Of a DNA stretch of 64,000 bases, positions 2 to 64,000 are shown in pieces. The notes below the pieces were generated by a model. The model ran no database searches. It had not been told where the DNA came from and was given only the letters and a program-made list of their open reading frames with translations. The stretch is from a virus (lineage: Duplodnaviria; Heunggongvirae; Uroviricota; Caudoviricetes): IMG/VR virus record IMGVR_UViG_2799112330_000002, positions 346,107 through 410,106 of that record; one strand, 5' to 3'. The position numbers and the translations under genes are program-made. Within the stretch, counting starts at the first letter, position 1. Every line of letters begins with the position of its first letter.

Positions 2-577
2 AATCCTGATGGAGCATTGTATGTAAAAGGCGCAGAAAACATTGTCAAGCCTATTATTGATTATGTAAAGAAGAACAAGGCAACTATTGATCAGATCATT
101 TTTACAAGAGACTGGCATTTGAACAAAGATGAGTCATTCAAGAAAAATGGTGGTATCTGGCCTGTTCATTGTGTACAGAATACTGAAGGTGCTAACATCA
201 ATAAGGAATTGTATGACGCATTGATTCAGACAAGAATTCCTGTAAAGATTGTCAATAAGGGAACAACATTCAATCATGAAGAATATGGAGCGTTTGAACA
301 CTGTGGAACTTTCCATCATCTTTATCCTAATAGTACTCCAACTGTAAGCAATTGCTATTTTGCTAACTATGAGTCTTCTTCAGGAACAAGAATTGTCAAT
401 GAAGATGTAGTTGTATGTGGAGTTGCTGGTGACTATTGTGTAAAAGAGACAATTAAGAATCTTATTAAGCACTGGAAAAACTTCAAGATTGAGGTCTTTA
501 TGGATGGTATTGCTTCTATTGATGATGGTACTTCTTTGATGGAACTTATTGAAGATAAAAATTTGAAAGTGATCTAA
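2..577 (+). CDS. pncA: nicotinamidase / isochorismatase-family hydrolase (PncA-like), 5'-truncated at window edge
   Basis: Reading frame is open back to base 2 (NPDGALYVKGAE...). Nicotinamidase-like catalytic Cys motif VCGVAGDYCV and the ...DWH... pattern typical of the isochorismatase/PncA fold. The track start at 17 is a TTG. Confidence 0.65.
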   Translation, partial: NPDGALYVKGAENIVKPIIDYVKKNKATIDQIIFTRDWHLNKDESFKKNGGIWPVHCVQNTEGANINKELYDALIQTRIPVKIVNKGTTFNHEEYGAFEHCGTFHHLYPNSTPTVSNCYFANYESSSGTRIVNEDVVVCGVAGDYCVKETIKNLIKHWKNFKIEVFMDGIASIDDGTSLMELIEDKNLKVI

Positions 578-670: not shown

Positions 671-1861
671 ATGATTTATTCTATTCTTGACACAGATCTG
701 TATAAGTTCACTACAAGTTATGCTTATATGAAATTGTTTCCAAATGCTGAATGTACTTTCACTTTCAAAGACAGGAACAATGTAAAACGTACTCCACAGT
801 TTCTTAAAAGATTCAAAGCAAAGCTTAAAGAGTTCTGTGAGAATGCTTGTCTTACATCTACTGAATATTATTTGCTTAAAGAATCTCATCGTAGTGATTT
901 CATTCCAACATATTATTGGGAGTGGTTGTATTCATTCCGATTTGATTATGGCAAGATCAAAGTATATCTTAATGAAGATGATGTACTTTGTATGGAGGTA
1001 ACTGATAAATGCTATAAATGTACCTTATATGAGATTCCTTGTATGTTCCTTATTTCAGAGGTCAATAATGAAGACAAAGTTATTGATTGGGAACTAACAA
1101 TGAATAAACTCAGAGAAAAAATTGATTTAGCTAATGAAAATGGAATGCTGTTCTCTGAGTTTGGTACACGTCGTAGATTCAGTCAAGAAGTTCAAGATCA
1201 GGTTTGCTGTATTTTAAAACAATATGCAAAGACTTGTGTAGGAACATCAAACGTATATTTCGCTCTTAAGTATGGAATGAAGCCAATTGGTACACATCCA
1301 CATGAATGGTTTATGTTCCATGGAGCACAGTATGGATATAAGCAGGCTAATTATATTGCTCTTGAGAATTGGGTAAATGTGTATGATGGAGATCTTGGTA
1401 TTGCTCTTTCTGATACATATACATCAGATGTGTTCTTCAATAACTTCTCATTAAAACAGGCTAAGCTTTTTGATGGGGTTCGTCAAGATTCAGGAGATGA
1501 AATTGAATTTATCAAAAAGACTATTGAATTCTACAAGGGAAAGGGAATTGATTATAGTAACAAAACAATTGTATTCTCTAATGCTCTTGATTTTCCTAAA
1601 GCAGTAAAAATTAAGACATATTGTGATAATAGAAATATTAAATGTTCATTTGGAATCGGCACAAATCTTACATGCGATGTATATGATAAAAATGGTGAAA
1701 ATTATCCACATGAAAATATCGTAATGAAGATGTCTCAATGTAGAATGAATGAACATAGTTTATGGCATCCGGCAATTAAGATTTCTGATGATTTTGGAAA
1801 GCATATGGGAAATAATAAAGAATTTGAACATGCATGCTATGAATTGAACATTGTTATTTAA
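671..1861 (+). CDS. pncB: nicotinate phosphoribosyltransferase
   Basis: N-terminus SILDTDLYKFT resembles the PncB signature (LLDTDxYK). Length 396 aa and the GTHPHEW region are consistent with NAPRTase. Confidence 0.7.
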   Translation: MIYSILDTDLYKFTTSYAYMKLFPNAECTFTFKDRNNVKRTPQFLKRFKAKLKEFCENACLTSTEYYLLKESHRSDFIPTYYWEWLYSFRFDYGKIKVYLNEDDVLCMEVTDKCYKCTLYEIPCMFLISEVNNEDKVIDWELTMNKLREKIDLANENGMLFSEFGTRRRFSQEVQDQVCCILKQYAKTCVGTSNVYFALKYGMKPIGTHPHEWFMFHGAQYGYKQANYIALENWVNVYDGDLGIALSDTYTSDVFFNNFSLKQAKLFDGVRQDSGDEIEFIKKTIEFYKGKGIDYSNKTIVFSNALDFPKAVKIKTYCDNRNIKCSFGIGTNLTCDVYDKNGENYPHENIVMKMSQCRMNEHSLWHPAIKISDDFGKHMGNNKEFEHACYELNIVI

Positions 1862-7641: not shown

Positions 7642-8532
7642 ATGGACTACGCAAAAGTTTTTGAAACAATGGTTAATGAGACACAGAAATATCTTGAGTC
7701 AAATAATCTTCAAGCAATGATTTTGGGTATTTCTGGCGGATTAGACTCAACAGTTACAGCTGCAATTTGTCATGAGGTTGAGAAACGAAATCCAGAGCTC
7801 AAGTTTATTGGTATTTCTCTTCCATGTTCCTCAAATTCTGAAGAAGAAAATGATTCCGCAAAAATTTGCATGAAGGCATTTTGTAAGTCAGGACAATGGT
7901 GGACAGAGAATCTTCAGAAGGAATATATGCTTATGCGAGCTACTTGTTCACAAAGACATCTTATGACAACAATTGGTCAGGGAAATATCAAGGCTCGTCT
8001 TCGTATGACATATCTTTATAATGAAGCTAATTATTTCAACGGTCTTGTAATGGACACTGACAATCTTACAGAGCATTATCTTGGATTCTTCACAATTCAT
8101 GGAGATGTTTGTGACTTCAATCCAATCGGTGGCCTTTGGAAGCATGAAGTATATTATCTTGCAGAGTATCTTTATACAGATTATTATGATGCTCCGTTTG
8201 GTCCTGATGGAGAAAGACATTTGGCTTTAGAACATGCTTTGAAGATCACTCCTACAGATGGAAACGGAGTAAATGATCTTGGAGACATGGGACAGATTGC
8301 TCCTGAATTTGCTTATTGTAAGAATATGGATGCTTATGAAAAGGTAGACAATATTATCAGGACATATCTTTATGGCATTCAGAGTCATCCTGAGGTATTT
8401 CAGGCAAGCATGCAGACATTATATGATACATATACACCAGAAACAGTAGATGGTATTATCAGAAGAATAAAATCTACAGAATACAAACGTAAGAAACTTC
8501 CTATTGTAGTTGGCAGAAAAAAATATGAATAA
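7642..8532 (+). CDS. nadE: NH3-dependent NAD+ synthetase
   Basis: PP-loop ISGGLDSTV (SGGxDS) near the N-terminus; 296 aa, typical NadE size. Confidence 0.7.
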   Translation: MDYAKVFETMVNETQKYLESNNLQAMILGISGGLDSTVTAAICHEVEKRNPELKFIGISLPCSSNSEEENDSAKICMKAFCKSGQWWTENLQKEYMLMRATCSQRHLMTTIGQGNIKARLRMTYLYNEANYFNGLVMDTDNLTEHYLGFFTIHGDVCDFNPIGGLWKHEVYYLAEYLYTDYYDAPFGPDGERHLALEHALKITPTDGNGVNDLGDMGQIAPEFAYCKNMDAYEKVDNIIRTYLYGIQSHPEVFQASMQTLYDTYTPETVDGIIRRIKSTEYKRKKLPIVVGRKKYE

Positions 8533-10844: not shown

Positions 10845-11318
10845 ATGATTGGAACATTAACATTTAAGAAGTTTACTGGAGAGAAGCTAGAGAACGTAGA
10901 GGAATATGTAAAGAACTATTGTGAGGAGCATAAGAATGACAATATTGAGATTCTTGTTGGAACAGACTCACAGAACAAGAGAAGCTATACTACATATTCA
11001 ACAGTAATAGCAATGTATACACCAGGACATGGCGCTCATTGCATATTCAAGAGATGGAGAACTCCAAAAGAGAGAATCCGTAATACAAGACTTTTGAAAG
11101 AGGTAGAAGAAAGCTTAAACATTGCCGAAAGTCTTGTTAAATACGGATGTCCAAAGCCAAAGTATATTGATATAGACATAAACCCAAATCCAAAATATAA
11201 GTCAAATGAAGTATATCAGGCAGCAAGAGGCTGGATTGAGGGAATGGGCTATGAAGTGAGATACAAAACATTAGCACCATTGGTTACTACAGTAGCTGAC
11301 TGGCTAGTAAAATCATAA
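10845..11318 (+). CDS. hypothetical protein, possibly YkuK/DUF458-like RNase H-fold
   Basis: Motifs VGTDSQ...GHGAH...DINPNPKYKS, recalled from memory as resembling the YkuK family; unverified. Confidence 0.45.
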   Translation: MIGTLTFKKFTGEKLENVEEYVKNYCEEHKNDNIEILVGTDSQNKRSYTTYSTVIAMYTPGHGAHCIFKRWRTPKERIRNTRLLKEVEESLNIAESLVKYGCPKPKYIDIDINPNPKYKSNEVYQAARGWIEGMGYEVRYKTLAPLVTTVADWLVKS

Positions 11319-11350
11319 GGGAAATCTTAAAGACTTCCCTTTTTTGTTTT
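11317..11350 (+). terminator. intrinsic terminator (aagggaa...ttccctt plus T-run)
   Basis: 7-bp stem followed by ttttttgtttt directly after the stop codon. Confidence 0.55.
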
Positions 11351-11430
11351 AATATTTGATTGAATTTCAGAATTATTTTACTATATTAAATATATATAAT
11401 TTTTAATACATAACTTAAATAATATATAAT

Positions 11431-12405
11431 ATGATTAAAGAATTTAAAACTCGTACTGGGGCAATTTATTGTGATACTGATAAGACTATGGAGTATCTTT
11501 ATGTTGGAGATTATGGTCAGGAAAATAATATTAAGGCTGATTTTCTTGGATTCAAGAAGGAAATCAACTCTGTTCCCCATCATAAAGTAGACCTAAAAGA
11601 TAAGATGGTTGTCACAATCTCAACACAGAAAGGCTGTCCAATGAAATGTATGTTCTGTGACTGTCCCAAAGTAAAATTTGGAGGTAATATCTCTAGAGTA
11701 GAACTTGCAGAAGAGGTTACTCAGGCTATTGCTTTTAGTGGTTGTAAGTACACAAGAAGATTTAATCTTCATTTAGCAAGAATGGGAGAGCCTTCTTTTA
11801 ATGCTAGAAATGTTCTTGATTTCTTAAAGTATGACCTTCGTGGTTTAGTAAATAATATGATGAAGGCAGACACTATTCATCCAGTATTTACGACAATGTG
11901 TCCAAAAGGAATCGGAAAAGAAAAGTTGGCAAGTATTCTTCAAGAATTCTGTTCTATTAAGAATGATGATTATAATGGAGAAGCTGGACTGCAGTTATCT
12001 ATTAATTCAACCGATGAAGCTCAAAGAAATCAGTTATTCAGGGGTTGTTCATTAACACTTCAAGAAATTTCCGATATTGCTAAAGAGCTTCCAATGCCAA
12101 AAGGTAGAAAATATACATTAAACTTCCCAGTTACAGATACAATAATATTAGATCCTAAGGAGTTAAGCAGATTGTTTGATAAAGACAAGTTCATTGTAAA
12201 GATTACTCCAATTCATGAGACTAATGAAGCTAATGAAAATGGAATCGGAACTCCAGAAGGATATTATAAGTATGATGTATATAGACAATTTGAGCAGCCA
12301 CTTTTGGCAGAAGGTTGGCAAGTAATTGTATTCATACCATCTAAGGAAGAAGATGAAGATCGCATTACTTGTGGAAATGCATTATTATCAATGGAAGAAA
12401 AATGA
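11431..12405 (+). CDS. radical SAM enzyme, RlmN/Cfr-like RNA adenine methyltransferase family
   Basis: STQKGCPMKCMFCDC (CxxxCxxC cluster; compare RlmN SSQVGCAMGCSFCAT). MGEPSFN matches the MGMGEPL SAM motif. C-terminal ITCGNAL matches the RlmN/Cfr catalytic AaCGQL cysteine. Confidence 0.6.
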   Translation: MIKEFKTRTGAIYCDTDKTMEYLYVGDYGQENNIKADFLGFKKEINSVPHHKVDLKDKMVVTISTQKGCPMKCMFCDCPKVKFGGNISRVELAEEVTQAIAFSGCKYTRRFNLHLARMGEPSFNARNVLDFLKYDLRGLVNNMMKADTIHPVFTTMCPKGIGKEKLASILQEFCSIKNDDYNGEAGLQLSINSTDEAQRNQLFRGCSLTLQEISDIAKELPMPKGRKYTLNFPVTDTIILDPKELSRLFDKDKFIVKITPIHETNEANENGIGTPEGYYKYDVYRQFEQPLLAEGWQVIVFIPSKEEDEDRITCGNALLSMEEK

Positions 12406-13085
12406 AATTCATATTTGTAAATAGCTCTCCAAAGAATGAAGATTCCTGTGTTGAACGAGCATTTGATGAAATAAAGAATGTTCTTAAGTCAAATGGGCAT
12501 ACAGTGACAAGTTTCTATATTCATGTATTTGAAGATTGTAGAAACTGTAGAAACTGTAAGAATGGATTGCCATGCCCACTGAAAGACGCAAATATAATTG
12601 ACAATTTTATGGAAGAATCTGAAACTGCTGATGGGATAATATTTGGGTCACCTGTCTATTATGGAGGAATAACAAGTCAGATGAAAGCATTTCTGACCAG
12701 ACTGTTCTTTTCAAATCCAAAAGCATTAATGCTCAAGCCAATAGCAACTGTTGTTTCATCAAGACGTGCAGGTAGTACAACAGCTTTATCAGAATTCAAT
12801 CTTCCATTCTTAATGCATTCATGTATTCTTGTTGGATCTCAATATTGGAATGAAGTTCATGGTGACACCCAAGAAGATGTTGAATTGGATTATGAGGGTC
12901 TTCAATGTATGCGAACATTAGCACAAAATATGATGTTTGTTGCAGATGCATTAAAAAACAAAGAACACCCACAACATGAAGTCAAAAAGCATTTGAATTA
13001 TATATCACGTGAATATAAAGCATATATTAATAATGATAAAGAAATGAAAGAGCTTTATGATATGATTTCATCTTCATATGAATAA
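12402..13085 (+). CDS. flavodoxin-like NAD(P)H-dependent FMN reductase / iron-sulfur flavoprotein
   Basis: MKFIFVNSSPK...IFGSPVYYGGITSQMKAFLTRL is typical of the FMN_red/Isf family. Cys cluster CRNCRNCKNGLPC. ATG at 12402 overlaps the upstream stop (ATGA), implying translational coupling. Confidence 0.6.
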   Translation: MKFIFVNSSPKNEDSCVERAFDEIKNVLKSNGHTVTSFYIHVFEDCRNCRNCKNGLPCPLKDANIIDNFMEESETADGIIFGSPVYYGGITSQMKAFLTRLFFSNPKALMLKPIATVVSSRRAGSTTALSEFNLPFLMHSCILVGSQYWNEVHGDTQEDVELDYEGLQCMRTLAQNMMFVADALKNKEHPQHEVKKHLNYISREYKAYINNDKEMKELYDMISSSYE

Positions 13086-13103
13086 AAATATTTACTTTAT
13101 ATA

Positions 13104-13976
13104 ATGTTCGGTAAATTAAGATATAATGTAAACCCTTGTGATCATGGATTTAGTGAGTTTATTGTGCATTTGACAAAATCATGTGAAAACAAATGCCCAT
13201 TTTGTATTGCTGCTAAATATGATGACAAAGGATATATAAAGCCAAATATAAAAGCTATATGTGAAACGCTTAAAAAATATGAAGGAAAATCTCCGTATGT
13301 AACAATTGGTGGTGGTGAACCTTTGCTATTTCTTGATGAAGTCATTGAACTTATTGATTGGATAAGAGCAAACATGCAACTTGAAATATATATTGTAACT
13401 TCAATTCCATACACCTGTTACAAGAATCCTGATAAGTTCATGTATATTGTAAATCATGTTGACAACTTTCAGATAACTACTCAGCATTATGATGAAAAAA
13501 TAGCAGATGAAATAAGAGGTAGCAAATCTAAGTTTAGTCATAATGAATTTCTAAGATCAATTCCAAACAAAGACAAGATCATATTGAATGTGAATGCATG
13601 TGCCCCATATATAAAGACTAAACAAGACATCATAGATAATATCAAGTTCTTTTATTATATGGGATATAAGAACTATAGATTGGTTGAAATCAAAGATCAC
13701 CCAGATATGTTTGTTGATATCCCAAAGACTCTTGGTGTAAAGATTAAGCCATTATTTGGGTGGGGCTGCAAGCAAGAAGTTGATTTTTCACAATTCATTC
13801 CAGGATTTGATGGCAAAGTCATAATGAATATGTCATGTTTCCTGAGGGATAAGCATCGTAAAGCAAATATATGGGATATGATTAAGTCTATGACACGTCC
13901 ATTATTTAGTAAGAAACATTTCTTTGGTGTCATATATGAAGATGGTTCAATATATCCATATTGGTTATCTAAATAG
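13104..13976 (+). CDS. radical SAM enzyme (second), function unknown
   Basis: CENKCPFC (CxxxCxxC) near the N-terminus; TIGGGEPLLF glycine-rich SAM motif. Confidence 0.6.
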   Translation: MFGKLRYNVNPCDHGFSEFIVHLTKSCENKCPFCIAAKYDDKGYIKPNIKAICETLKKYEGKSPYVTIGGGEPLLFLDEVIELIDWIRANMQLEIYIVTSIPYTCYKNPDKFMYIVNHVDNFQITTQHYDEKIADEIRGSKSKFSHNEFLRSIPNKDKIILNVNACAPYIKTKQDIIDNIKFFYYMGYKNYRLVEIKDHPDMFVDIPKTLGVKIKPLFGWGCKQEVDFSQFIPGFDGKVIMNMSCFLRDKHRKANIWDMIKSMTRPLFSKKHFFGVIYEDGSIYPYWLSK

Positions 13977-14026: not shown

Positions 14027-14380
14027 ATGAAAGACTTAATTACAAAATTATCTGAGCATTTTTCTTCTAAATATGCATATGTAACTAATGATAATGAAAT
14101 ATATGAAATAAATGAGGAAGAACTTGAGGATCTTCGTGATAAAAGAATTGCTGAACTTGAAGCAACAATCAAATCAATGCAAGATGAATTGAAATTATTA
14201 AAGGATGATAATAAATCATTAAAAGAAGTTACCACTAAGCAGAAAAAAAGTGAAGCTGCAAAGAAAGCAGCAAAAGCAAGATCAGAACGAAGAGCTGCGG
14301 CAGATAATGCTAGATGGACTCCACCAGTATGGGGATATGGAGGATGTGGCTATTCTAGAAATAATTATGGAGGATGCTAA
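14027..14380 (+). CDS. coiled-coil protein with Lys/Ala-rich C-terminus
   Basis: ORF of 117 aa with heptad-like EELEDLRDKRIAELEATIKSMQDELKLLK. Confidence 0.4.
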   Translation: MKDLITKLSEHFSSKYAYVTNDNEIYEINEEELEDLRDKRIAELEATIKSMQDELKLLKDDNKSLKEVTTKQKKSEAAKKAAKARSERRAAADNARWTPPVWGYGGCGYSRNNYGGC

Positions 14381-14406
14381 CTCAAAATTCACATATAAAA
14401 TATATA

Positions 14407-14438
14407 AATCTGGAAATGCAAGTTTCCAGATTTTTTTG
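14407..14438 (+). terminator. intrinsic terminator (aatctggaaa / tttccagatt plus T7)
   Basis: 10-bp stem followed by ttttttt. Confidence 0.65.
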
Positions 14439-14879: not shown

Positions 14880-16769
14880 ATGACTCAAAAGGAAAAACTG
14901 GAGCTTTACAATAAAGCAAAAGAGGCTTATTACAATGGTCAGGAGATTATGACTGACTATGAGTTTGACCAATTGGAGAAGGAGCTTGGTCTTGAGAACA
15001 AATCAAATGTCGGTTCTAAGCATAATCCTTCTTATACCGTCAAGCATCCATTCATTATGGGTTCTCTTTCAAAAGTACAGATCCATAAAGACAAGGATGG
15101 CAACATTGACTGGAAAAAATACAATGAGCAGGTTGCTAACTATATTGATATGGAGAATTCTTTTCATGTTATCATTACTCCTAAATTTGATGGTTGCTCA
15201 TTTGAATGTGAAATCAACAATGACAAGATCCAGTCAATTTCTTCAAGAGGAGATGGCAAATGGGGTAAAGACTTAATGAATCATCTAATCAATTTCATTC
15301 CAAGTGAATATGTACATTTAGAGGGCCATTATGTACTTCGTGGAGAGGTATTGGTGAAGAAGTCAATATTTGAACAGAAATATGCAGAGAAGTTTACTAA
15401 TCCCCGTTCGTTTGTTTCTGGTGTTTTGAACCGAGATTATAGTGGATTAGATAAAGAATTTCTTGAAATGCTTAATGATCTTTCAATTGTTATTTATGAC
15501 TATAGATCTGAGCGTTATGGGACTTGGATTGATCATGAGTTTACTGAGCTTCCTTATAATAATGTTCTTCCTTCTTATTATAATAGAGATGCTTCAATTT
15601 ATGAATCTGATGCTCTTGAGAAAGTATATAATGCATATGCTGATTATCGAAAGACCTGTGAATATGCTTTGGATGGAATTGTAATCAAACCTATTGTTAA
15701 GAATCGTAGAAATAATCTTACTGAACATCGTCCTAAGGATTGTGTAGCAATTAAATTCATTCCCATGCTTCAGGAAACAGAAGTCGTGAATATCACCTGG
15801 AACCTCGGTAAGACTCATGAATTCATTCCTATTATTTGGGTAAAACCTGTAGAGATGGATGGCCGAATGGTACAGAAGTGTTCAGGTCATAATCTTGGTT
15901 ATCTTCGTCAAAAAGGAATTACTGTTGGTGCAAAGATTATTATGAGTTTGGCTGGTGACATTATTCCATTTATGTACAAGGTGACTCAAGAAAATCCTGA
16001 TGGAGAAATCCCAATGCCAACTACTTATGGTTATTATGAGGATGACATCCACCTGATGGCACTTATGGAGATGAAAGACAGAATCAGAATGCAATTCTTG
16101 TCTTCAGTAACATCACTTAATATCCCAACAATTGGTAATCAAACTGCAAAAGAAATATGGGAATATTTAGACAATACTGATGAACAAACTATGGAGTTTT
16201 TTGAAGTGGAGAAAAAAGAAATGCCATTCAATATTCTGCTTTGCTCACCTGAGGAAGTTTATTTTGGCGCTGGTTGTGGAAAACTTGGAGAAAATGCCAA
16301 GAAAGCATTTAAGAACATTCTTGATAATCTCACTCTTAATGACATTGTCAAATCATGTAATTTTCCATTCTGTGGTCCAAAAGTTGCAGAACAGGTTGTA
16401 AATCATCTTCTTGGTGAAATTCCTAATTGGGCTCATCTTGCAACAGAAGGATATCTTTGGGTATATGATACTAATTCATGGCAATATCAAAATGTTATGA
16501 AGATTCTGAATCATCTTGGAAAGAATTTTGATGACTTCAAGTTCCAACATCAAGAAGCTGTCAAAGAATCATCCAATCAGATTCCAGTCATTCTTACTGG
16601 TGAACCTGTCAACTATAAGTCAAAGGGAGAGTTCTTGAAGCTTAACCCACAATATAGAAATACAGGATCATGGAAAGAGGTACAGATTGTATTTACCAAT
16701 TCTATGGATAGTAATACAGGCAAGATGAAGAAAGCAAGAGAGAAGAACATTGAAATTAGATTATATTAA
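14880..16769 (+). CDS. ligA: NAD+-dependent DNA ligase (LigA-type)
   Basis: N-terminal Ia-like AYYNGQEIMTDYEFDQLEKEL. Adenylation motif ITPKFDGCS (KxDG). 629 aa, LigA size. Confidence 0.65.
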   Translation: MTQKEKLELYNKAKEAYYNGQEIMTDYEFDQLEKELGLENKSNVGSKHNPSYTVKHPFIMGSLSKVQIHKDKDGNIDWKKYNEQVANYIDMENSFHVIITPKFDGCSFECEINNDKIQSISSRGDGKWGKDLMNHLINFIPSEYVHLEGHYVLRGEVLVKKSIFEQKYAEKFTNPRSFVSGVLNRDYSGLDKEFLEMLNDLSIVIYDYRSERYGTWIDHEFTELPYNNVLPSYYNRDASIYESDALEKVYNAYADYRKTCEYALDGIVIKPIVKNRRNNLTEHRPKDCVAIKFIPMLQETEVVNITWNLGKTHEFIPIIWVKPVEMDGRMVQKCSGHNLGYLRQKGITVGAKIIMSLAGDIIPFMYKVTQENPDGEIPMPTTYGYYEDDIHLMALMEMKDRIRMQFLSSVTSLNIPTIGNQTAKEIWEYLDNTDEQTMEFFEVEKKEMPFNILLCSPEEVYFGAGCGKLGENAKKAFKNILDNLTLNDIVKSCNFPFCGPKVAEQVVNHLLGEIPNWAHLATEGYLWVYDTNSWQYQNVMKILNHLGKNFDDFKFQHQEAVKESSNQIPVILTGEPVNYKSKGEFLKLNPQYRNTGSWKEVQIVFTNSMDSNTGKMKKAREKNIEIRLY

Positions 16770-29882: not shown

Positions 29883-30689
29883 ATGGATAACATACATACA
29901 ATAGTAATTCCTGATGTTCATGGTAGAACATTTTGGAAAACAGTTTTTGAAAAATATACTAAGGAAGACTATCCAGATATTGTTATAGTCTTTCTTGGTG
30001 ATTATGTTGATCCTTATTCATTTGAAGGGATTGATAAAGAATCAGCAATTGACAATTTCAAAGAAATCATAGATGTAGCCAAAGCTGACAATAGAGTGCA
30101 TCTTCTTTTTGGAAATCATGATATGCATTATTGGTATGATGCTCCTTATAAATGTAGGGTAGATAATAAGAACTATGATATTATCAAAAAGATATTCTTG
30201 GATAATTTTGATATGTTCAATGTTGCATATGAAGAAATAATTGATGATGAAAAGTTCTTATATACTCATGCTGGTGTCACACAATATTGGTTGAATCATC
30301 TTCAGTTTCATGGTAAGATGGGCTTAGAAACTAATTTTGGAAAGATGAAAGAGTCTCAAATTCCTTTTTGTGAAATGCTTAGAGACATGACACCTGATGC
30401 AGACAAGTTGAACAAACTAAAAGGTAATTTCCAAGGTGAAGCAAATCTTTGGATGGCATCTTATTCACGTGGTGGTGATTATTCAGATGGAAGTTGTATA
30501 TGGGCAGACTTATCAGAATGGTTTTATAATGGAGCTGAAATTTCAGGAATATGGCAAGTATTCGGTCATTCACGTTGGTCTAAAAATGATCCAGATAACT
30601 TATATATTGACTATGATAGAAAGTTTGCTTGTGTAGATACAGGTAGTTCTTGGATAATTACTAATGGCAAACAATTTATTAAAGTCTAA
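29883..30689 (+). CDS. calcineurin-like metallophosphoesterase (Ser/Thr phosphatase or ApnA hydrolase-like)
   Basis: DVHG ... GDYVD ... GNHD motif series. Confidence 0.6.
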   Translation: MDNIHTIVIPDVHGRTFWKTVFEKYTKEDYPDIVIVFLGDYVDPYSFEGIDKESAIDNFKEIIDVAKADNRVHLLFGNHDMHYWYDAPYKCRVDNKNYDIIKKIFLDNFDMFNVAYEEIIDDEKFLYTHAGVTQYWLNHLQFHGKMGLETNFGKMKESQIPFCEMLRDMTPDADKLNKLKGNFQGEANLWMASYSRGGDYSDGSCIWADLSEWFYNGAEISGIWQVFGHSRWSKNDPDNLYIDYDRKFACVDTGSSWIITNGKQFIKV

Positions 30690-35177: not shown

Positions 35178-35837
35178 ATGCAAAAAGAATTAATTAACAA
35201 ACGAATTGATCTTCTATTATCTATAACCGAAAGAGCCGGAAAATATAGAAACAATAGACCATATAAAGCATGGCTTCCAGAAAATGTAACAGATGCAACT
35301 GCTTCTCAAAATGATTATGTAAAATATCTCTGTAAAGGAACTCCAAAGACTATTTATGATGGAAGATTTGTTGCAGTATCAGGATTCATTTTTGCAGTTG
35401 TAGATGGTAAATATTCTATCTTAGCTAATCTTCGTGGTCAAGGTACTCCAGACTATCAAGGCTATTGGAATGCCCCTTGTGGTTATCTTGAACGATTTGA
35501 AAATTCTAAACAAGGTATTCAACGAGAGATCTTTGAGGAATGTGGCTTTATTATTGATACAAAAGACCTGAAGATCAAACATGTAGAGACAGAACCTGAG
35601 GAATGCAATAATGGAAATGTAACAATCAGACATACCGCATTCCTTGGAAAGATCAAACCAGAATATGTCAATAAGACAGGTGGAGAAGAAAATGAAGTTG
35701 ATTCTGTAAAATGGATTCCTATTGATGAATTAGACAATTATAAATGGGCATTCAACCATCGTAAGACAATTGAGAAATATGCTCCTAAAAAATGGAAACG
35801 TAAGTTGGTTGAATTCTATTATGCATCATTATTTTAA
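35178..35837 (+). CDS. Nudix hydrolase
   Basis: Perfect Nudix box GYLERFENSKQGIQREIFEECGF (Gx5Ex7REUxEExGU). Confidence 0.65.
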   Translation: MQKELINKRIDLLLSITERAGKYRNNRPYKAWLPENVTDATASQNDYVKYLCKGTPKTIYDGRFVAVSGFIFAVVDGKYSILANLRGQGTPDYQGYWNAPCGYLERFENSKQGIQREIFEECGFIIDTKDLKIKHVETEPEECNNGNVTIRHTAFLGKIKPEYVNKTGGEENEVDSVKWIPIDELDNYKWAFNHRKTIEKYAPKKWKRKLVEFYYASLF

Positions 35838-38934: not shown

Positions 38935-39756
38935 ATGAAGAAGATTTTTAGTTTTTTGATTTTGTGTATGTTTGTTATGAGTATGACTTCTTGTAGGAAG
39001 GTTGCTCCCAATGTTGGTGAGGAATGCGTATTAACGTATAAGCCATGGTTCTTTGGGCATGGTGGTATTGATATGACTCCTGTAGAATCTGGTCTTACTT
39101 GGTGTGCAATCACAACTTATGCCGATACCTTTAAGATCATCCCAGTAAAATGGCAAGTGAATATGGAGGATCTTGTTAGTGATGATAATACTCCTTTGGA
39201 TTTTCATACTGTTATTATCACTCAGATTGAAGCAGGAAAGTCACCTGTTCTTTTGAAAAACTATGGTAAGCAATGGTTTATGACAAACTTGTATAATTAT
39301 TACTGTAATATTGTGCGAGATCATATTTCACAACATAGCCCATTTGATTTGATGAGCAATAGACAGATCTTGAATGATATTGATGCAAAGGTATTGAAAC
39401 AGATGCAGGATTTTGTTGCTGAGTTGTCAAAGAATAAAAAATTCCCTGTAGTGATCAAACAGGTAACAATTGGTAAAGCTTTGCCTAATACGGAACAGTT
39501 AGCAGAAATGAACAGAACGGCAAAAGCAGTACAAGCAAAACAAACACAGGAGCGAGAAGCAGAAGTACAGATGGCAAGAGAGAAAGCTGAACGTCAGAGA
39601 GCAAAAGCAGATAAAGCATATATGCAGGAAATGAATCTTAATCCTCAGGACTTCATTCAACTTAAATGGATTGAAACAATCAACAACAAGTCTGGAGCTA
39701 ATATTGATGTCATGGTAGGTTCTCCTTCTACATCAATGTGGAATATTCGAAGATAA
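38935..39756 (+). CDS. lipoprotein with C-terminal charged coiled-coil, possibly SPFH/band-7-like
   Basis: Signal peptide plus MTSC lipobox; EREAEVQMAREKAERQRAKADKA tail. Confidence 0.45.
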   Translation: MKKIFSFLILCMFVMSMTSCRKVAPNVGEECVLTYKPWFFGHGGIDMTPVESGLTWCAITTYADTFKIIPVKWQVNMEDLVSDDNTPLDFHTVIITQIEAGKSPVLLKNYGKQWFMTNLYNYYCNIVRDHISQHSPFDLMSNRQILNDIDAKVLKQMQDFVAELSKNKKFPVVIKQVTIGKALPNTEQLAEMNRTAKAVQAKQTQEREAEVQMAREKAERQRAKADKAYMQEMNLNPQDFIQLKWIETINNKSGANIDVMVGSPSTSMWNIRR

Positions 39757-62519: not shown

Positions 62520-62603
62520 CGCGGTCTAGTCTAATGGTAAGATGCAAGGCTCATAACCTTGAGACAGAAAATGCAAGTCCTGGTTCGATTCCAGGGGCCG
62601 CAA
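62520..62603 (+). tRNA. tRNA-like gene, anticodon CAT (Met/fMet or Ile2), atypical: C1.A72 mismatch and a 17-nt unpaired extra region
   Basis: Hand-folded. Acceptor cgcggtc/ggccgca, U8, D-arm with GG, anticodon arm caagg-ctCATaa-ccttg, T-arm cctgg-ttcgatt-ccagg. An extra agacagaaaatgcaagt lies between the anticodon and T arms with no stem. No CCA encoded. Confidence 0.45.
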
Positions 62604-62916
62604 CTAAAAAATTAAGTAGTCATAATAAGAGTTACATCGTAAATAACAATTGTATAGTATTAATAGATCCAGTATTTTTGTCTCTTATTAGTAATTCTCT
62701 TAATTAAAAATATTTATTATTATATAGAAAAAGAAAACATAAAAATCAAAAGAATATGAAGAATCTATTTTCACATAACAGCCAAATTAGTTTTTCAGAA
62801 CGACCAAGTTTTGAAGGATGCGGCATGTGGTCTATTAGATGCTTGAATATATATTCTGGAGATATGGAAGTATAAGTTATATATAATAATACAAAAACTA
62901 AACTATATATAGAATG

Positions 62917-62956
62917 AATCTCCAGAGCTTAATAAAAAGTTTTGGAGATTTTTTTA
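62917..62956 (+). terminator. weak terminator (aatctcca...tggagatt plus T6) after a 39-aa ORF
   Basis: 8-bp stem with a long loop. Confidence 0.35.
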
Positions 62957-62965
62957 TATAAAAGA

Positions 62966-63002
62966 TTGAATTTTTCTAAAATGAAACTATATTAATAATA
63001 CA
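62966..63002 (+). promoter_or_regulatory. conserved promoter motif upstream of tRNA
   Basis: TTGAAT-N16-ACTATATTAATAATACAT. Confidence 0.45.
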
Positions 63003-63034
63003 TAAAACAATAAATAATAGTTCTTTGAAATAAT

Positions 63035-63124
63035 GCTGCGTTCGACTAGTGGCTTAGGTCACCACACTTTCAATGTGGTAGCTGGTGTGAAGCCGGCACA
63101 GGGGTTCGAATCCCCTACGCAGTA
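63035..63124 (+). tRNA. type-II-architecture tRNA (long variable arm) with anticodon TTC as folded; isotype uncertain
   Basis: Acceptor gctgcgt/acgcagt (G1.U72), D-arm gact-agtggctta-ggtc, anticodon arm ccaca-ctTTCaa-tgtgg, 21-nt variable arm with a 5-bp stem, T-arm agggg-ttcgaat-cccct. Confidence 0.55.
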
Positions 63125-63223
63125 CTTTACAAGATTGAGAATCAAGTATTCAGAAATGAATCAAAACATTGATCTTTGACATATTCAATTCAAAAGAATT
63201 GAGGTTATCAAAGAATTGATCTT

Positions 63224-63252
63224 TGACATATTGGTACAACAAAAAATATATA
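63224..63252 (+). promoter_or_regulatory. consensus-like sigma70 promoter TTGACA-N17-TATATA (second copy of an 18-nt direct repeat)
   Basis: attgatctttgacatatt occurs at 63168 and 63215; the second copy has a TATATAAAT -10 element at the correct spacing. Confidence 0.45.
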
Positions 63253-63257
63253 AATTA

Positions 63258-63905
63258 CCTGTACTGGTCAACGATTCTAAGGTACAGAGGGGTACAGGTT
63301 GTAAGTCATAAACTCTCAGAACGCTGTTGAAACATAACAGATGCGTCAAGTGCCAGCTACTGAGCAGTCGTAACGGGTTTATGAGATTTATTTTCAAATA
63401 TAACTTCCGAGGGCGAAGATTAATTCTTCAATGGGCATACTGAATTGACAGTTGGAAGACCTTGTAGTGGCAAACACGTGATTGAGGTCAGCGCGATTGG
63501 TAAAGCAACCAAATGGAGACTGTGAAAGGGAAAAGCAGTGAGAATCTGCACCGTATTTTTGAATTTAATGTTCAAGGAGTTTGGTTAATTGCTCTATGAC
63601 AGATGTAGGAAGTTATTTTAATAAAATGATATGTCGAATCAAGTTTAAGAAAAAATTTCGTAAGACTAAGGTTCGGGATGTATAGAAAGGCATAGTAAAA
63701 GCATCATGGGTATTGACATCCTATGCGAGAAATGAGTCGGGAAATCCGAATGATACTCAGAAAGTCCTATAAGCATATGATATTCTAATAAATGATTATA
63801 TGTTGTTAACAGGTTTGAAGGGACCCCAAGGTGAAGGTAACGACTTCAGGACGCTTCAGTAATCGACTGTGAAACTCAGTTAAGCTTTTGCATATCATTT
63901 TAATT
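63258..63905 (+). ncRNA. candidate large structured non-coding RNA (about 650 nt, GC-elevated, ORF-free) between two tRNAs
   Basis: GC about 40-45% against about 27% for the window. No ORF on the + strand. Multiple local helices visible (acctgtac/gtacaggt, gaagaTTAAttcttc, gcagTGAGAATctgc). Lies downstream of a strong promoter and directly upstream of tRNA-Ser. Confidence 0.4.
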
Positions 63906-63907
63906 TT

Positions 63908-63994
63908 GGAGGTATGTGATAATTGGTAGTCGGGCGGTCTTGAAAATCGTTGGTCGTGATGAGCGGCTTGGGGGTTCGAGTCCCTCTGCCTCCG
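63908..63994 (+). tRNA. tRNA-Ser (anticodon TGA), type II
   Basis: Acceptor ggaggta/tgcctcc, U8, anticodon arm gcggt-ctTGAaa-atcgt, variable arm with a 5-bp stem, T-arm ggggg-ttcgagt-ccctc, discriminator G. Confidence 0.65.
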
Positions 63995-64000
63995 CAAAAA

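Follow-up and report, generated by a model that had tools for sequence, protein, structure and literature searches.

Several lines of described biology bear on the locus presented here. In E. coli RlmN, C355 (motif AACGQL) carries the methyl group, and a second catalytic cysteine, C118, located seven residues before the first cluster cysteine, resolves the enzyme-substrate adduct. Iron-sulfur flavoproteins (Isf) are known as ferredoxin-dependent reducers of O2 and H2O2, not as reductases of radical SAM enzymes. NAD+ depletion features prominently in bacterial immunity against phages. Phage pathways that reconstitute NAD+ have been described as NARP1, NARP2 and NARP3, the last consisting of PnuC and NadR, and the NARP3 paper makes no mention of a radical SAM enzyme, a flavoprotein or a Cys-tailed protein (PMC13464706). 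In C. difficile, an operon joins a transporter, a nucleosidase and a radical SAM lyase (the QueL system, with QrtT/QueT and QueK; PMC11477304, PMC11130926).

The g1-g4 unit and its NAD-gene surroundings

The locus lies within a 64,000-nucleotide stretch of a Caudoviricetes genome (hereafter the window), for which no DNA-level similarity to known phages was found. The three ORFs of the preliminary description are present on the + strand (g1 to g3, Table 1). That description missed g4, the lack in g1 of both a C118 equivalent and the RlmN N-terminal domain, and the NAD-salvage surroundings. The translational coupling it had proposed for all three genes holds for g1 and g2, where the stop codon TGA (12403-12405) and the start codon ATG (12402-12404) overlap as ATGA, but not for g2 and g3, which are 18 nt apart; 50 nt separate g3 from g4. 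An alternative TTG start listed for g2 at 12369 was judged less likely than the ATG at 12402. Two terminator-like hairpins flank the four genes: the first closes the upstream RNaseH-like gene and forms the 5' boundary, and the second the 3' boundary, of what is one unit. The promoter-like site upstream of g1 is weak evidence in this AT-rich DNA, and such sites in the region do not exceed the number expected from shuffling.

Table 1. Features of the window discussed in the text, with positions relative to its first nucleotide.
Feature	Position	Strand	Basis and remarks
Nicotinamidase-like isochorismatase-family protein	17-577	+	Signature IWPVHCVQNTEGA; Pfam 24.7 bits, just under the cut-off of 27
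NAPRTase (nicotinate phosphoribosyltransferase)	671-1861	+	PF04095 (E 5e-54), PF17767
NAD synthase (NadE-like)	7642-8532	+	PF02540 (E 5e-39)
Terminator-like hairpin, then T-run	11317-11346	+	gggaaatcttaaagacttccc followed by tttttt; the scan gave the - strand
Promoter-like site TTAATA-16-TATAAT	11403-11430	+	Just 5' of g1; 10/12 matches
g1	11431-12405	+	ORF, 324 aa; RlmN/Cfr-like (class-A-like) radical SAM enzyme of an uncharacterised family
g2	12402-13085	+	ORF, ATG start, 227 aa; FMN_red-family flavoprotein, candidate electron donor for g1
g3	13104-13976	+	ORF, 290 aa; second radical SAM enzyme, rare family
g4	14027-14380	+	ORF, 117 aa; coiled-coil/charged body and Cys-terminated tail; candidate g3 substrate or partner
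Terminator-like hairpin, 12 pairs, then T-run	14406-14433	+	Hairpin scan
NAD-dependent DNA ligase	14880-16769	+	ORF; directly 3' of the g1-g4 unit

The window encodes a Preiss-Handler-type set (PncA-like protein, NAPRTase and NadE), and neither PnuC nor NadR was found in it. Its NAPRTase is 49% identical to the NAPRTase adjoining a g1 homolog in locus L003, and its NadE is 44% identical to the one that comes after g1 and FMN_red in locus L010. A homolog of the ligase in locus L127 (77% identical) contains PF01653 (DNA_ligase_aden) and PF03120. The locus resembles NARP1-3 in its phage-borne NAD-rebuilding genes, and pairs like g3 and g4 recur inside the PnuC-NadR (NARP3) cassettes of other phages. 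Conversely, the NARPs were described without a radical SAM enzyme, a flavoprotein or a Cys-tailed protein. With the same reserve as the overall explanation given below, we read the first ~17 kb of the window as a block of NAD-replenishing genes in a large gut phage.

Relation of g1 to RlmN and Cfr

The CxxxCxxC cluster, MGEP motif and C-terminal cysteine ascribed to g1 by the preliminary description are all present (C69-x3-C73-x2-C76, RMGEP at 117-121, and C314-G315) and are invariant in an alignment of 71 family members, as are S64 and G68. The cluster motif aligns with C125/C129/C132 of RlmN, and profile alignment equates C314 with C355 (EDeigsnCGQ with GDDIDAACGQ, 'snCGQ' falling on AACGQ). 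g1 shares with RlmN/Cfr the cluster context S-x-Q-x-G-C-x3-C-x2-C, the SAM motif MGEP-x2-N, the C-terminal cysteine in CG(Q/N) and the need for a reductant. The family profile matches RlmN 6fz6 (2e-15), E. coli RlmN (8e-14) and Cfr (6e-13). The AF2 model of g1 (pLDDT 85) retrieves RlmN first among PDB folds (E 3e-10 to 9e-9, TM ~0.6) and Cfr next, with ~15% identity in the structural alignments; other radical SAM folds reach 4e-5 or weaker.

Beyond this kinship, three defining features of RlmN/Cfr are not found. Of the two catalytic cysteines, C355 has its equivalent in C314, but none of the 71 family members has a cysteine at the C118 position, which is occupied by T, I, N, L, V or M (T62 in g1); the family has four invariant cysteines and no further conserved one. 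The N-terminal RNA-binding domain of RlmN (~residues 1-95) is absent, HMM and PDB alignments beginning at model position ~95-99. In the AF2 model, residues 1-57 of g1 form three short strands and a low-confidence linker, and many family members begin directly at the core. Finally, g1 scores far under the curated cut-offs, with 34 bits against the RlmN model TIGR00048 (cut-off 290 bits) and 14-16 bits against the Cfr models (cut-offs 468-550 bits), and the best family member attains 66 bits against the RlmN model (cut-off 290). g1 itself matches PHROG 24834 (E 2e-90), which, like the domain matches of g2 and g3 given below, is well outside chance, and its homologs at E<=1e-3 number 6770; its family forms 582 separate clusters at 50% identity among 1.84e9 representatives. 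g1 has the RlmN/Cfr core fold, but with neither the C118 cysteine nor the RNA-binding N-domain, and with 34 bits where the cut-off is 290, it is not a member of the RlmN/Cfr family. The assignment to the RlmN/Cfr type in the preliminary description therefore stands in so far as RlmN and Cfr are the closest kin of g1 in sequence, profile and predicted fold, and fails for family membership. Without a counterpart of C118, g1 cannot go through the RlmN methylation cycle in its described form, so its chemistry may be other than methylation.

The retained methyl-carrying cysteine, together with the closeness to RlmN/Cfr in sequence, profile and fold, would suit a minimal RNA C-methyltransferase (tRNA A37 or 23S A2503-type) that serves translation takeover, with another domain or partner binding RNA and another residue resolving the adduct. 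We consider this unlikely. Besides the missing domain, the missing C118 equivalent (0/71) and the low model scores, family members are mildly acidic (median pI ~6), and no translation-linked gene was found among the neighbours and fusions of the family. Automatic annotation does name homologs RlmN, and the MTA/SAH nucleosidase fused to some relatives fits the release of SAH and 5'-deoxyadenosine; the three phage tRNAs all have A37, which is uninformative. In metagenomes, g1 homologs are automatically annotated as RlmN, '23S rRNA (adenine2503-C2)-methyltransferase'.

Partners of the g1 family

From its sequence, g2 is predicted to be an FMN reductase of the iron-sulfur-flavoprotein type. It matches FMN_red (PF03358; E 3e-18, 66.4 bits, cut-off 24) as well as WrbA-type structures, and like Isf/FMN_red (WrbA-like) proteins it has a compact N-terminal Cys motif, C46-x2-C49-x2-C52-x5-C58, which its homologs in L010, L019 and L127 retain. 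We take this CX2CX2CX4-7C motif to be the [4Fe-4S]-binding motif of Isf, as in Methanosarcina Isf. Unlike those proteins, g2 is encoded by a phage, and its start overlaps the stop of a radical SAM gene. Its homologs directly follow g1 homologs in the same three loci, and those of L010 and L019, also of Isf type, are only 36% identical to g2. g2 is plausibly the electron donor of g1, a link drawn from adjacency in a few lineages; a general function in redox balance or oxidative stress is the alternative for g2. The dedicated electron donor suggested by the preliminary description gains from the recurrence of partner flavoproteins in the g1 family, also as a fusion, and the electron flow itself we infer. 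Neither g1 nor g2 matched the PADLOC defence models.

In a cellular g1 subfamily (~30% identical), an FNR-like flavoprotein lies within 1.5 kb in 36 of 42 loci and an isochorismatase-family hydrolase in 31, and operons with a hydrolase and a reductase occur outside phages in both bacteria and archaea. We rejected thioredoxin reductase as the identity of the partner flavoprotein: 24 of 26 partners lack a CxxC, and the other two have it at an unrelated position. Gut bacterial operons have the order NAPRTase-PncA-rSAM-NadE-DUF5662-NrtR, and some phage g1 homologs neighbour either PncA and NAPRTase, in some cases with NUDIX, or an Isf-type FMN_red and NadE. In the flanks fetched (up to 6-8 kb each side), however, an NAD gene is lacking for about three in four of the close phage homologs. 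Between the cellular and the phage subfamily, the isochorismatase partners show only remote kinship and may not share a substrate. Fusions in the family join a flavoprotein to the radical SAM domain, the radical SAM domain to an isochorismatase, and an ECF S-component to the radical SAM domain and an MTA/SAH nucleosidase.

RlmN and Cfr have no such amidohydrolases, reductases, NAD-salvage genes or ECF component at their side. Because its family accompanies genes for electron donors and for vitamin B3/NAD recycling, g1 is more likely to take part in NAD rebuilding than in ribosome remodelling. The remodelling of host ribosomes or of tRNAs put forward in the preliminary description is thus not the best-supported role, given this company of amidohydrolases, NAD salvage and an ECF component.

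Phage accessory genes cluster whatever their function, and g1, g2 and the NAD genes might merely be co-located, with a host flavodoxin feeding g1, g2 serving oxidative stress or redox balance, and the NAD genes as coincidental cargo. The g1-g2-g3 order is indeed confined to near-identical phages, and most loci with a g1 homolog have no flavoprotein or NAD gene nearby. Chance proximity nevertheless appears improbable to us in view of the ATGA overlap, of the Isf-type FMN_red standing straight after g1 in L010 and L019 at such low identity to g2, and of the flavoprotein and isochorismatase fusions and the cellular operon; NrtR-regulated bacterial operons also contain a g1-family gene.

The ECF fusions bring a different substrate into view. 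In four representative clusters the g1-like domain is fused to an S-component whose best score is to QueT, at a marginal 30-40 bits against a cut-off of 33.7 (P0129 and P0131 above it), and two of the four add a C-terminal nucleosidase domain. With an S-component, a nucleosidase and a radical SAM domain in one chain, these relatives parallel the C. difficile operon, and g1 could be a 7-deazapurine (queuosine precursor) salvage enzyme, a functional analogue of QueL acting on an imported base or nucleoside. We regard this as very unlikely. QueL itself is rejected as the identity of g1: structure 6p78 is in the PDB library, yet neither phmmer with the g1 sequence (E<=1) nor the family profile retrieved it, and Foldseek did not place it in its top 50. 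QueL is classified in IPR006638 rather than as RlmN-like. By-product removal is the role suggested for the fused nucleosidase domain, which scores above the equivalog cut-off for MTA/SAH nucleosidase. A riboswitch, preQ1 or other, was found neither 5' of the gene for the ECF-rSAM-nucleosidase fusion nor in 12 loci of the cellular operon. Neither tgt nor que genes were observed beside g1 homologs, and the phage context is NAD.

RlmN/Cfr chemistry targets C2 or C8 of adenine, and g1 might thus C-methylate adenine in phage DNA as an anti-restriction hypermodification. Some homologs adjoin N6/N4 DNA methylases (L034-L036), neighbours that are common in phages anyway, and the homolog of Bacteroides phage Versailles lies among replication and recombination genes. 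g1 has no DNA-binding domain, and its family also occurs in non-phage bacterial and archaeal operons with a hydrolase and a reductase, which makes such a role extremely unlikely.

g3, g4 and the proposed role of the unit

The preliminary description had grouped g1, g2 and g3 as coupled genes. They are not a conserved module: the trio is limited to near-identical phages (86-93% identical to this phage), none of 36 IMG/VR and 80 genome loci with g1 homologs has g3 alongside, and g3 pairs with g4. g3 matches Radical_SAM (PF04055; E 1e-9, 39 bits, cut-off 29.5) and has the motifs C27/C31/C34 and GGEP (70-73). Three further invariant cysteines (C12, C222 and C245) may hold an auxiliary cluster. Homologs of g3 in viral contigs were found by an alignment-based scan, a single-sequence scan having given nothing. 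At least 12 lineages have, adjoining g3 homologs, a protein of 81-283 aa whose body is a coiled coil and whose Gly/Tyr/Ser-rich tail has Cys as its last residue; the g4 tail is Gly/Tyr/Ser/Cys-rich and likewise Cys-terminated (...WTPPVWGYGGCGYSRNNYGGC*). g3 is unrelated to g1 and g2. From adjacency only, g4 is a candidate substrate or partner of g3.

Known families did not account for g3. Viperin was rejected (NF038283, 31 bits against 180; TIGR04278, 20 against 450 and over the N-terminal core only), and the PADLOC pVip model gives 34 bits over residues 22-199. NrdG/PFL-AE was rejected as well (NrdG2, 32 bits against 131; PFLE, 29 against 174), and no glycyl-radical enzyme of the NrdD/PFL type was found among 30 window ORFs compared with Pfam, several long - strand ORFs lying outside that scan. 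In its three extra invariant cysteines g3 resembles radical SAM maturases (SuiB, CteB, SkfB, PqqE, MftC) and viperin/MoaA-type enzymes, and its constant pairing with an adjacent small tail protein recalls a maturase with its precursor. Unlike maturases, g3 has no SPASM/twitch HMM match, all its family scores are below cut-offs, and its 'precursors' are coiled-coil proteins of 81-283 aa whose conserved feature is the terminal Cys in the tail.

The explanation that we prefer, and hold tentatively, is a class-A-like radical SAM enzyme that receives electrons from a reductase and acts on a niacin/NAD-related small metabolite, and a separate pair of radical SAM enzyme and tail protein, within a phage NAD-replenishment island. 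g1 would direct RlmN-type radical chemistry at a small N-heteroaromatic metabolite of niacin/NAD salvage rather than at rRNA, using up two SAM and reducing equivalents, and the most likely outcome would be transfer of the Cys314-borne methyl to an sp2 carbon. Electrons would come from g2, as an FMN/[4Fe-4S] flavoprotein, and g3 would be a separate radical SAM enzyme working on, or with, g4. This explanation is built directly on fold, motifs, gene neighbourhoods and fusions, from which we infer the small-molecule substrate, the methyl transfer, the g2 electron flow and the relation of g3 to g4.

We know of no earlier example of a radical SAM reaction in NAD salvage, and our search of the literature on radical SAM enzymes in NAD salvage, NrtR regulons and phage RlmN-like genes found nothing relevant. 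A bolder and rather doubtful proposal is that the g1 family represents a new radical SAM step in niacin/NAD metabolism, such as C-methylation or another radical change of a pyridine or adenine ring in a compound from which NAD is made or into which it breaks down. Phages would then have taken this step over, together with a reductase of their own, for a new type of NAD+ counter-defence aimed at NAD-depleting immunity. g3/g4, with a Cys-tailed protein modified by a radical SAM enzyme, would be a second new component, accompanying PnuC-NadR cassettes.

To our knowledge, none of the three known phage NAD-reconstitution pathways involves radical chemistry. In the abundant gut phages considered here, NAD-salvage genes are accompanied by two distinct radical SAM enzymes, and in bacterial and archaeal phyla alike the g1 family also belongs to a conserved operon that includes a reductase and an amidohydrolase. 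The label '23S rRNA (adenine2503-C2)-methyltransferase' on genes of this family is probably wrong, and readers could take it for Cfr-like antibiotic resistance carried by phages. A functional link, if there is one, would point to an unrecognised reaction in the niacin/NAD or related heterocycle metabolism of anaerobes, and to a mechanistically informative reuse of the RlmN/Cfr catalytic core off the ribosome with one of its two catalytic cysteines.

The g1–g4 genes and their phage

The three genes of the preliminary description, encoding an RlmN/Cfr-like radical SAM protein (g1), a flavoprotein (g2) and a second radical SAM protein (g3), are real open reading frames at the positions in the table, and a small gene for a Cys-tailed protein (g4) begins 50 nt past g3. 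All three had been called translationally coupled. This holds for g1 and g2, where the g2 ATG shares bases with the g1 stop TGA in an ATGA overlap, but g3 is separated from g2 by 18 nt. Because two hairpins with T-runs bracket g1 to g4, the four genes likely form one unit.

Features of the window discussed in the text
Feature	Position	Strand	Remarks
Nicotinamidase-like	17-577	+	signature WPvHCVQnTeGA (WPVHCVQNTEGA); upstream of g1
NAPRTase	671-1861	+	upstream of g1
NAD synthase	7642-8532	+	upstream of g1
RNaseH-like protein	10845-11318	+	PF04308/DUF458, E 1e-20; PHROG 11311; just upstream of g1, own terminator-like hairpin
Hairpin + T-run	11317-11346		directly 3' of the RNaseH-like gene
g1	11431-12405	+	324 aa
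g2	12402-13085	+	227 aa; ATG at 12402
g3	13104-13976	+	290 aa
g4	14027-14380	+	117 aa
12-bp hairpin + T-run	14406-14433		3' of g4
NAD-dependent DNA ligase	14880-16769	+	629 aa; directly past g1-g4
Calcineurin-like metallophosphoesterase	29883-30689	+	
NUDIX hydrolase	35178-35837	+	33% identical to the NUDIX protein of locus L003
SPFH/Band-7 protein	38935-39756	+	
tRNA genes (3), near window end	62520-63995	+	Met-CAT, Glu-TTC, Ser-TGA; A at position 37 in 3/3; unusually long variable regions or overall lengths of 85-91 nt

The window has a G+C content of about 30% and no match to known phages at the nucleotide level. The best isolate match of g1 is from a Bacteroides phage (47%) and those of g3 are from Prevotella Lak megaphages (35-38%). 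IMG/VR contigs that carry homologs reach 361 kb, and the g3 cluster includes a 354-kb contig. We infer that the window comes from a large phage infecting Bacteroidota of the gut or rumen. In a sister phage (L127), an AAA_28 (ribosylnicotinamide-kinase-like) gene occupies the slot of the RNaseH-like gene.

The RlmN-like core of g1

In single-sequence searches, the RlmN matches of g1 are weak and confined to residues 53-134, with 34 bits to TIGR00048 (cut-off 290) and E 1e-4 to RlmN in the PDB; PHROG 24834, of unknown function, matches at E 2e-90. The g1 family comprises 6770 clusters at 90% identity (E≤1e-3) and only 582 at 50% identity among 1.84 billion representatives, and therefore differs from the bulk of RlmN. 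A family profile built from 71 sequences matches RlmN (2e-15 and 8e-14) and Cfr (6e-13) over the whole core. The ten best PDB folds for the AlphaFold model of g1 (pLDDT 85, pTM 0.86) are RlmN (E 3e-10 to 9e-9, TM 0.57-0.62), followed by Cfr at 1e-5 and by lipoyl and biotin synthases from 4e-5.

Exactly four cysteines are invariant across the 71 sequences, at positions 69, 73, 76 and 314. As the profile alignment places the family's '...EDeigsnCGQ' opposite 'GDDIDAACGQ' of RlmN, C314 corresponds to the methyl-carrying C355 (E. coli RlmN numbering). Of the two catalytic cysteines that the preliminary description proposed to align, only this one has an equivalent: cysteine occupies the position of the resolving C118 in 0 of 71 sequences, and g1 has T62. 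The N-terminal RNA-binding domain is also missing, since RlmN/Cfr model matches of the family begin at model position ~95-99; residues 1-57 are modeled as three short strands and a low-confidence linker. The RlmN/Cfr label thus stands for the fold and one catalytic cysteine but not for membership: g1 has a predicted RlmN-type active site, yet it falls short of three defining features, namely the C118 equivalent, the N-terminal domain and the TIGR00048 score. With its RlmN fold and C314, g1 could still be a true RNA methylase in minimal form, one working without C118 and the RNA-binding domain, which we consider unlikely.

Flavoproteins and NAD genes around the g1 family

The description of g2 as an FMN-reductase or iron-sulfur-type flavoprotein is borne out by a 66-bit match to FMN_red (PF03358) and by the motif C46-x2-C49-x2-C52-x5-C58, which is of the compact type that characterizes iron-sulfur flavoproteins. 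Its nearest solved relatives are WrbA-type quinone reductases, and the motif is kept in 36%-identical proteins directly after g1 homologs at loci L010 and L019. RlmN-type reactions use two reducing equivalents per turnover, and flavoproteins have repeatedly joined the g1 family, whether in an operon, through gene fusion or, in the window, through stop/start overlap; g2 is therefore a plausible dedicated reductant of g1.

A genome scan revealed a cellular g1 subfamily, ~30% identical and spread over many phyla, including Thermotogota, Aminicenantes, Elusimicrobia, Bacteroidales, Heimdallarchaeia and Thermoplasmata. Its conserved operon comprises an isochorismatase-family hydrolase, a flavoprotein and the radical SAM protein, with the flavoprotein at most 1.5 kb away in 36 of 42 loci and the hydrolase in 31 of 42. 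These flavoproteins lack the thioredoxin-reductase CxxC motif and are read as ferredoxin/flavodoxin-NAD(P) reductase-like electron suppliers. Family members are also fused to an isochorismatase or to a thioredoxin-reductase-like flavoprotein. The hydrolases of the cellular and phage subfamilies bear only remote likeness to each other. In Kosmotoga pacifica (L124, 5563-14954), the trio heads a same-strand run continuing with an M20 peptidase, an OTCase-like protein, two amidohydrolases, a DHO_dh/ferredoxin protein and a PLP enzyme, a set resembling anaerobic purine/pyrimidine breakdown clusters. This hints that the cellular and phage subfamilies may not act on the same N-heterocycle.

Gene order around g1 is not conserved: 83%-identical homologs are followed by isochorismatase, NAPRTase and NUDIX genes or by unannotated genes, and g3 lies beside g1 in none of 36 IMG/VR loci. 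That g1, g2 and the NAD genes are unrelated accessory genes, merely co-located, is a reading to which we give little credence. PncA-like and NAPRTase genes flank g1 homologs in phage and metagenome loci L003-L009 and L017, and Isf-type FMN_red and NAD synthase genes do so in L010 and L019. A gut bacterial MAG operon with ~60%-identical g1 homologs combines NAPRTase, PncA-like, radical SAM, NAD synthase, DUF5662 and NrtR, the Nudix-related regulator of NAD metabolism. NAD genes fall within the fetched flanks of 9/41 plus 4/38 close g1-homolog loci, a lower bound because those of the window itself sit 3-11 kb away.

In the window, the nicotinamidase-like, NAPRTase and NAD synthase genes make up a Preiss-Handler-type NAD salvage set; no NadD-like gene was recognized among the ORFs scanned. 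The DNA ligase is an NAD consumer beside these salvage genes. The NUDIX gene of L003 comes after PncA-NAPRTase genes beside a g1 homolog, and the window NUDIX and metallophosphoesterase are possible further NAD/ADP-ribose-handling genes. The DUF5662 protein (PF18907, E 4e-31), whose gene consistently follows NAD synthase and precedes NrtR where gut Alphaproteobacteria MAGs carry the operon with the g1 homolog (L060, L061, L063, L081), is a candidate for another uncharacterized NAD-metabolism gene. Distant g1 homologs (24-30% identity) adjoin an SPFH/band-7 gene in the crAss-like phage Kehishuvirus 'tikkala' (L002) and carry 'prohibitin family' annotations in Stenotrophomonas and Xanthomonas phages, which may reflect a distinct radical SAM-SPFH association.

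Four representative clusters fuse a radical SAM domain to an ECF S-component (QueT-like, borderline). In two of the four a nucleosidase domain follows at the C-terminus; that of P0131 passes the MTA/SAH nucleosidase cut-off. A QueL-like role for g1 in 7-deazapurine salvage is weakened because solved QueL (6p78) is matched neither in the sequence and profile searches nor among the 50 best folds, and because no preQ1 riboswitch was detected ahead of the fused ECF gene; we regard it as very unlikely. DNA hypermodification by g1 seems more doubtful still.

We tentatively favor g1 as a reductase-fed, class-A-like radical SAM enzyme acting on a small N-heteroaromatic metabolite tied to niacin/NAD salvage. 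The chemistry would most likely be methyl transfer via Cys314, with electrons supplied by g2. Both proteins would operate within a phage NAD-replenishment island, with g3 and g4 as a separate module.

The g3/g4 pair and its relatives in PnuC-NadR cassettes

The cluster motif and GGEP agree with the description of g3 as a second radical SAM enzyme; three further cysteines (C12, C222, C245) are invariant. All curated models score far under their cut-offs, and the predicted structure (pLDDT 82) is similar to many radical SAM cores, none of which stands out. The family is rare, with only 10 clusters in 5.8 billion proteins; more distant relatives occupy 15 full-length and 8 partial IMG/VR loci.

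Beside g3 homologs there is almost always an 81-283-aa protein with a Gly/Tyr/Ser-rich tail and cysteine as last residue, found in at least 12 lineages. In the window this is g4, whose coiled-coil/charged body is followed by a tail rich in Gly/Tyr/Ser/Cys and ending in Cys. Relatives occur in L127, L131, L132, L133, L135, L136, L137, L139-L144, L149 and L150. Tails reading up to the stop codon are ...WGYGGCGYSRNNYGGC (g4), ...GGYSGYGGGGRC (L131), ...YSGGCGNTYSGFSRSGGC (Lak-C1, L133), ...TYRYSYSGGC (L135), ...SYSYGSSCGGGSGNLSC (L136), ...YTFSGRGNRC (L137) and ...YSYNDRCGGGGGGCGSSNGRC (L142).

In at least three divergent lineages (L132, L137, L139-L144, L150), the g3/g4-like pair lies inside cassettes of PnuC and NadR-like (CTP_transf_like + AAA_28) genes, the latter combining NMNAT and ribosylnicotinamide kinase. 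L132 also has a WGR+PARP-like gene. PnuC and NadR together make up NARP3, an NAD+ reconstitution pathway described recently (PMC13464706). Compared with this two-gene pathway, the cassettes are a four-gene version. Given the recurrent Cys-tailed neighbor and this embedding, g3 and g4 look, from sequence, like an enzyme together with its substrate or a partner protein. The pair would be independent of g1/g2 and would likewise be linked to phage NAD reconstitution.

We found no literature on the g1 or g3 family. The novelty lies in the context. From Thermotogota to Asgard archaea, an RlmN-like core that has only one catalytic cysteine keeps conserved company with a reductase and an amidohydrolase, and phages have recruited this core beside NAD-salvage genes. 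PnuC-NadR cassettes are accompanied by a second radical SAM enzyme and its Cys-tailed partner protein.
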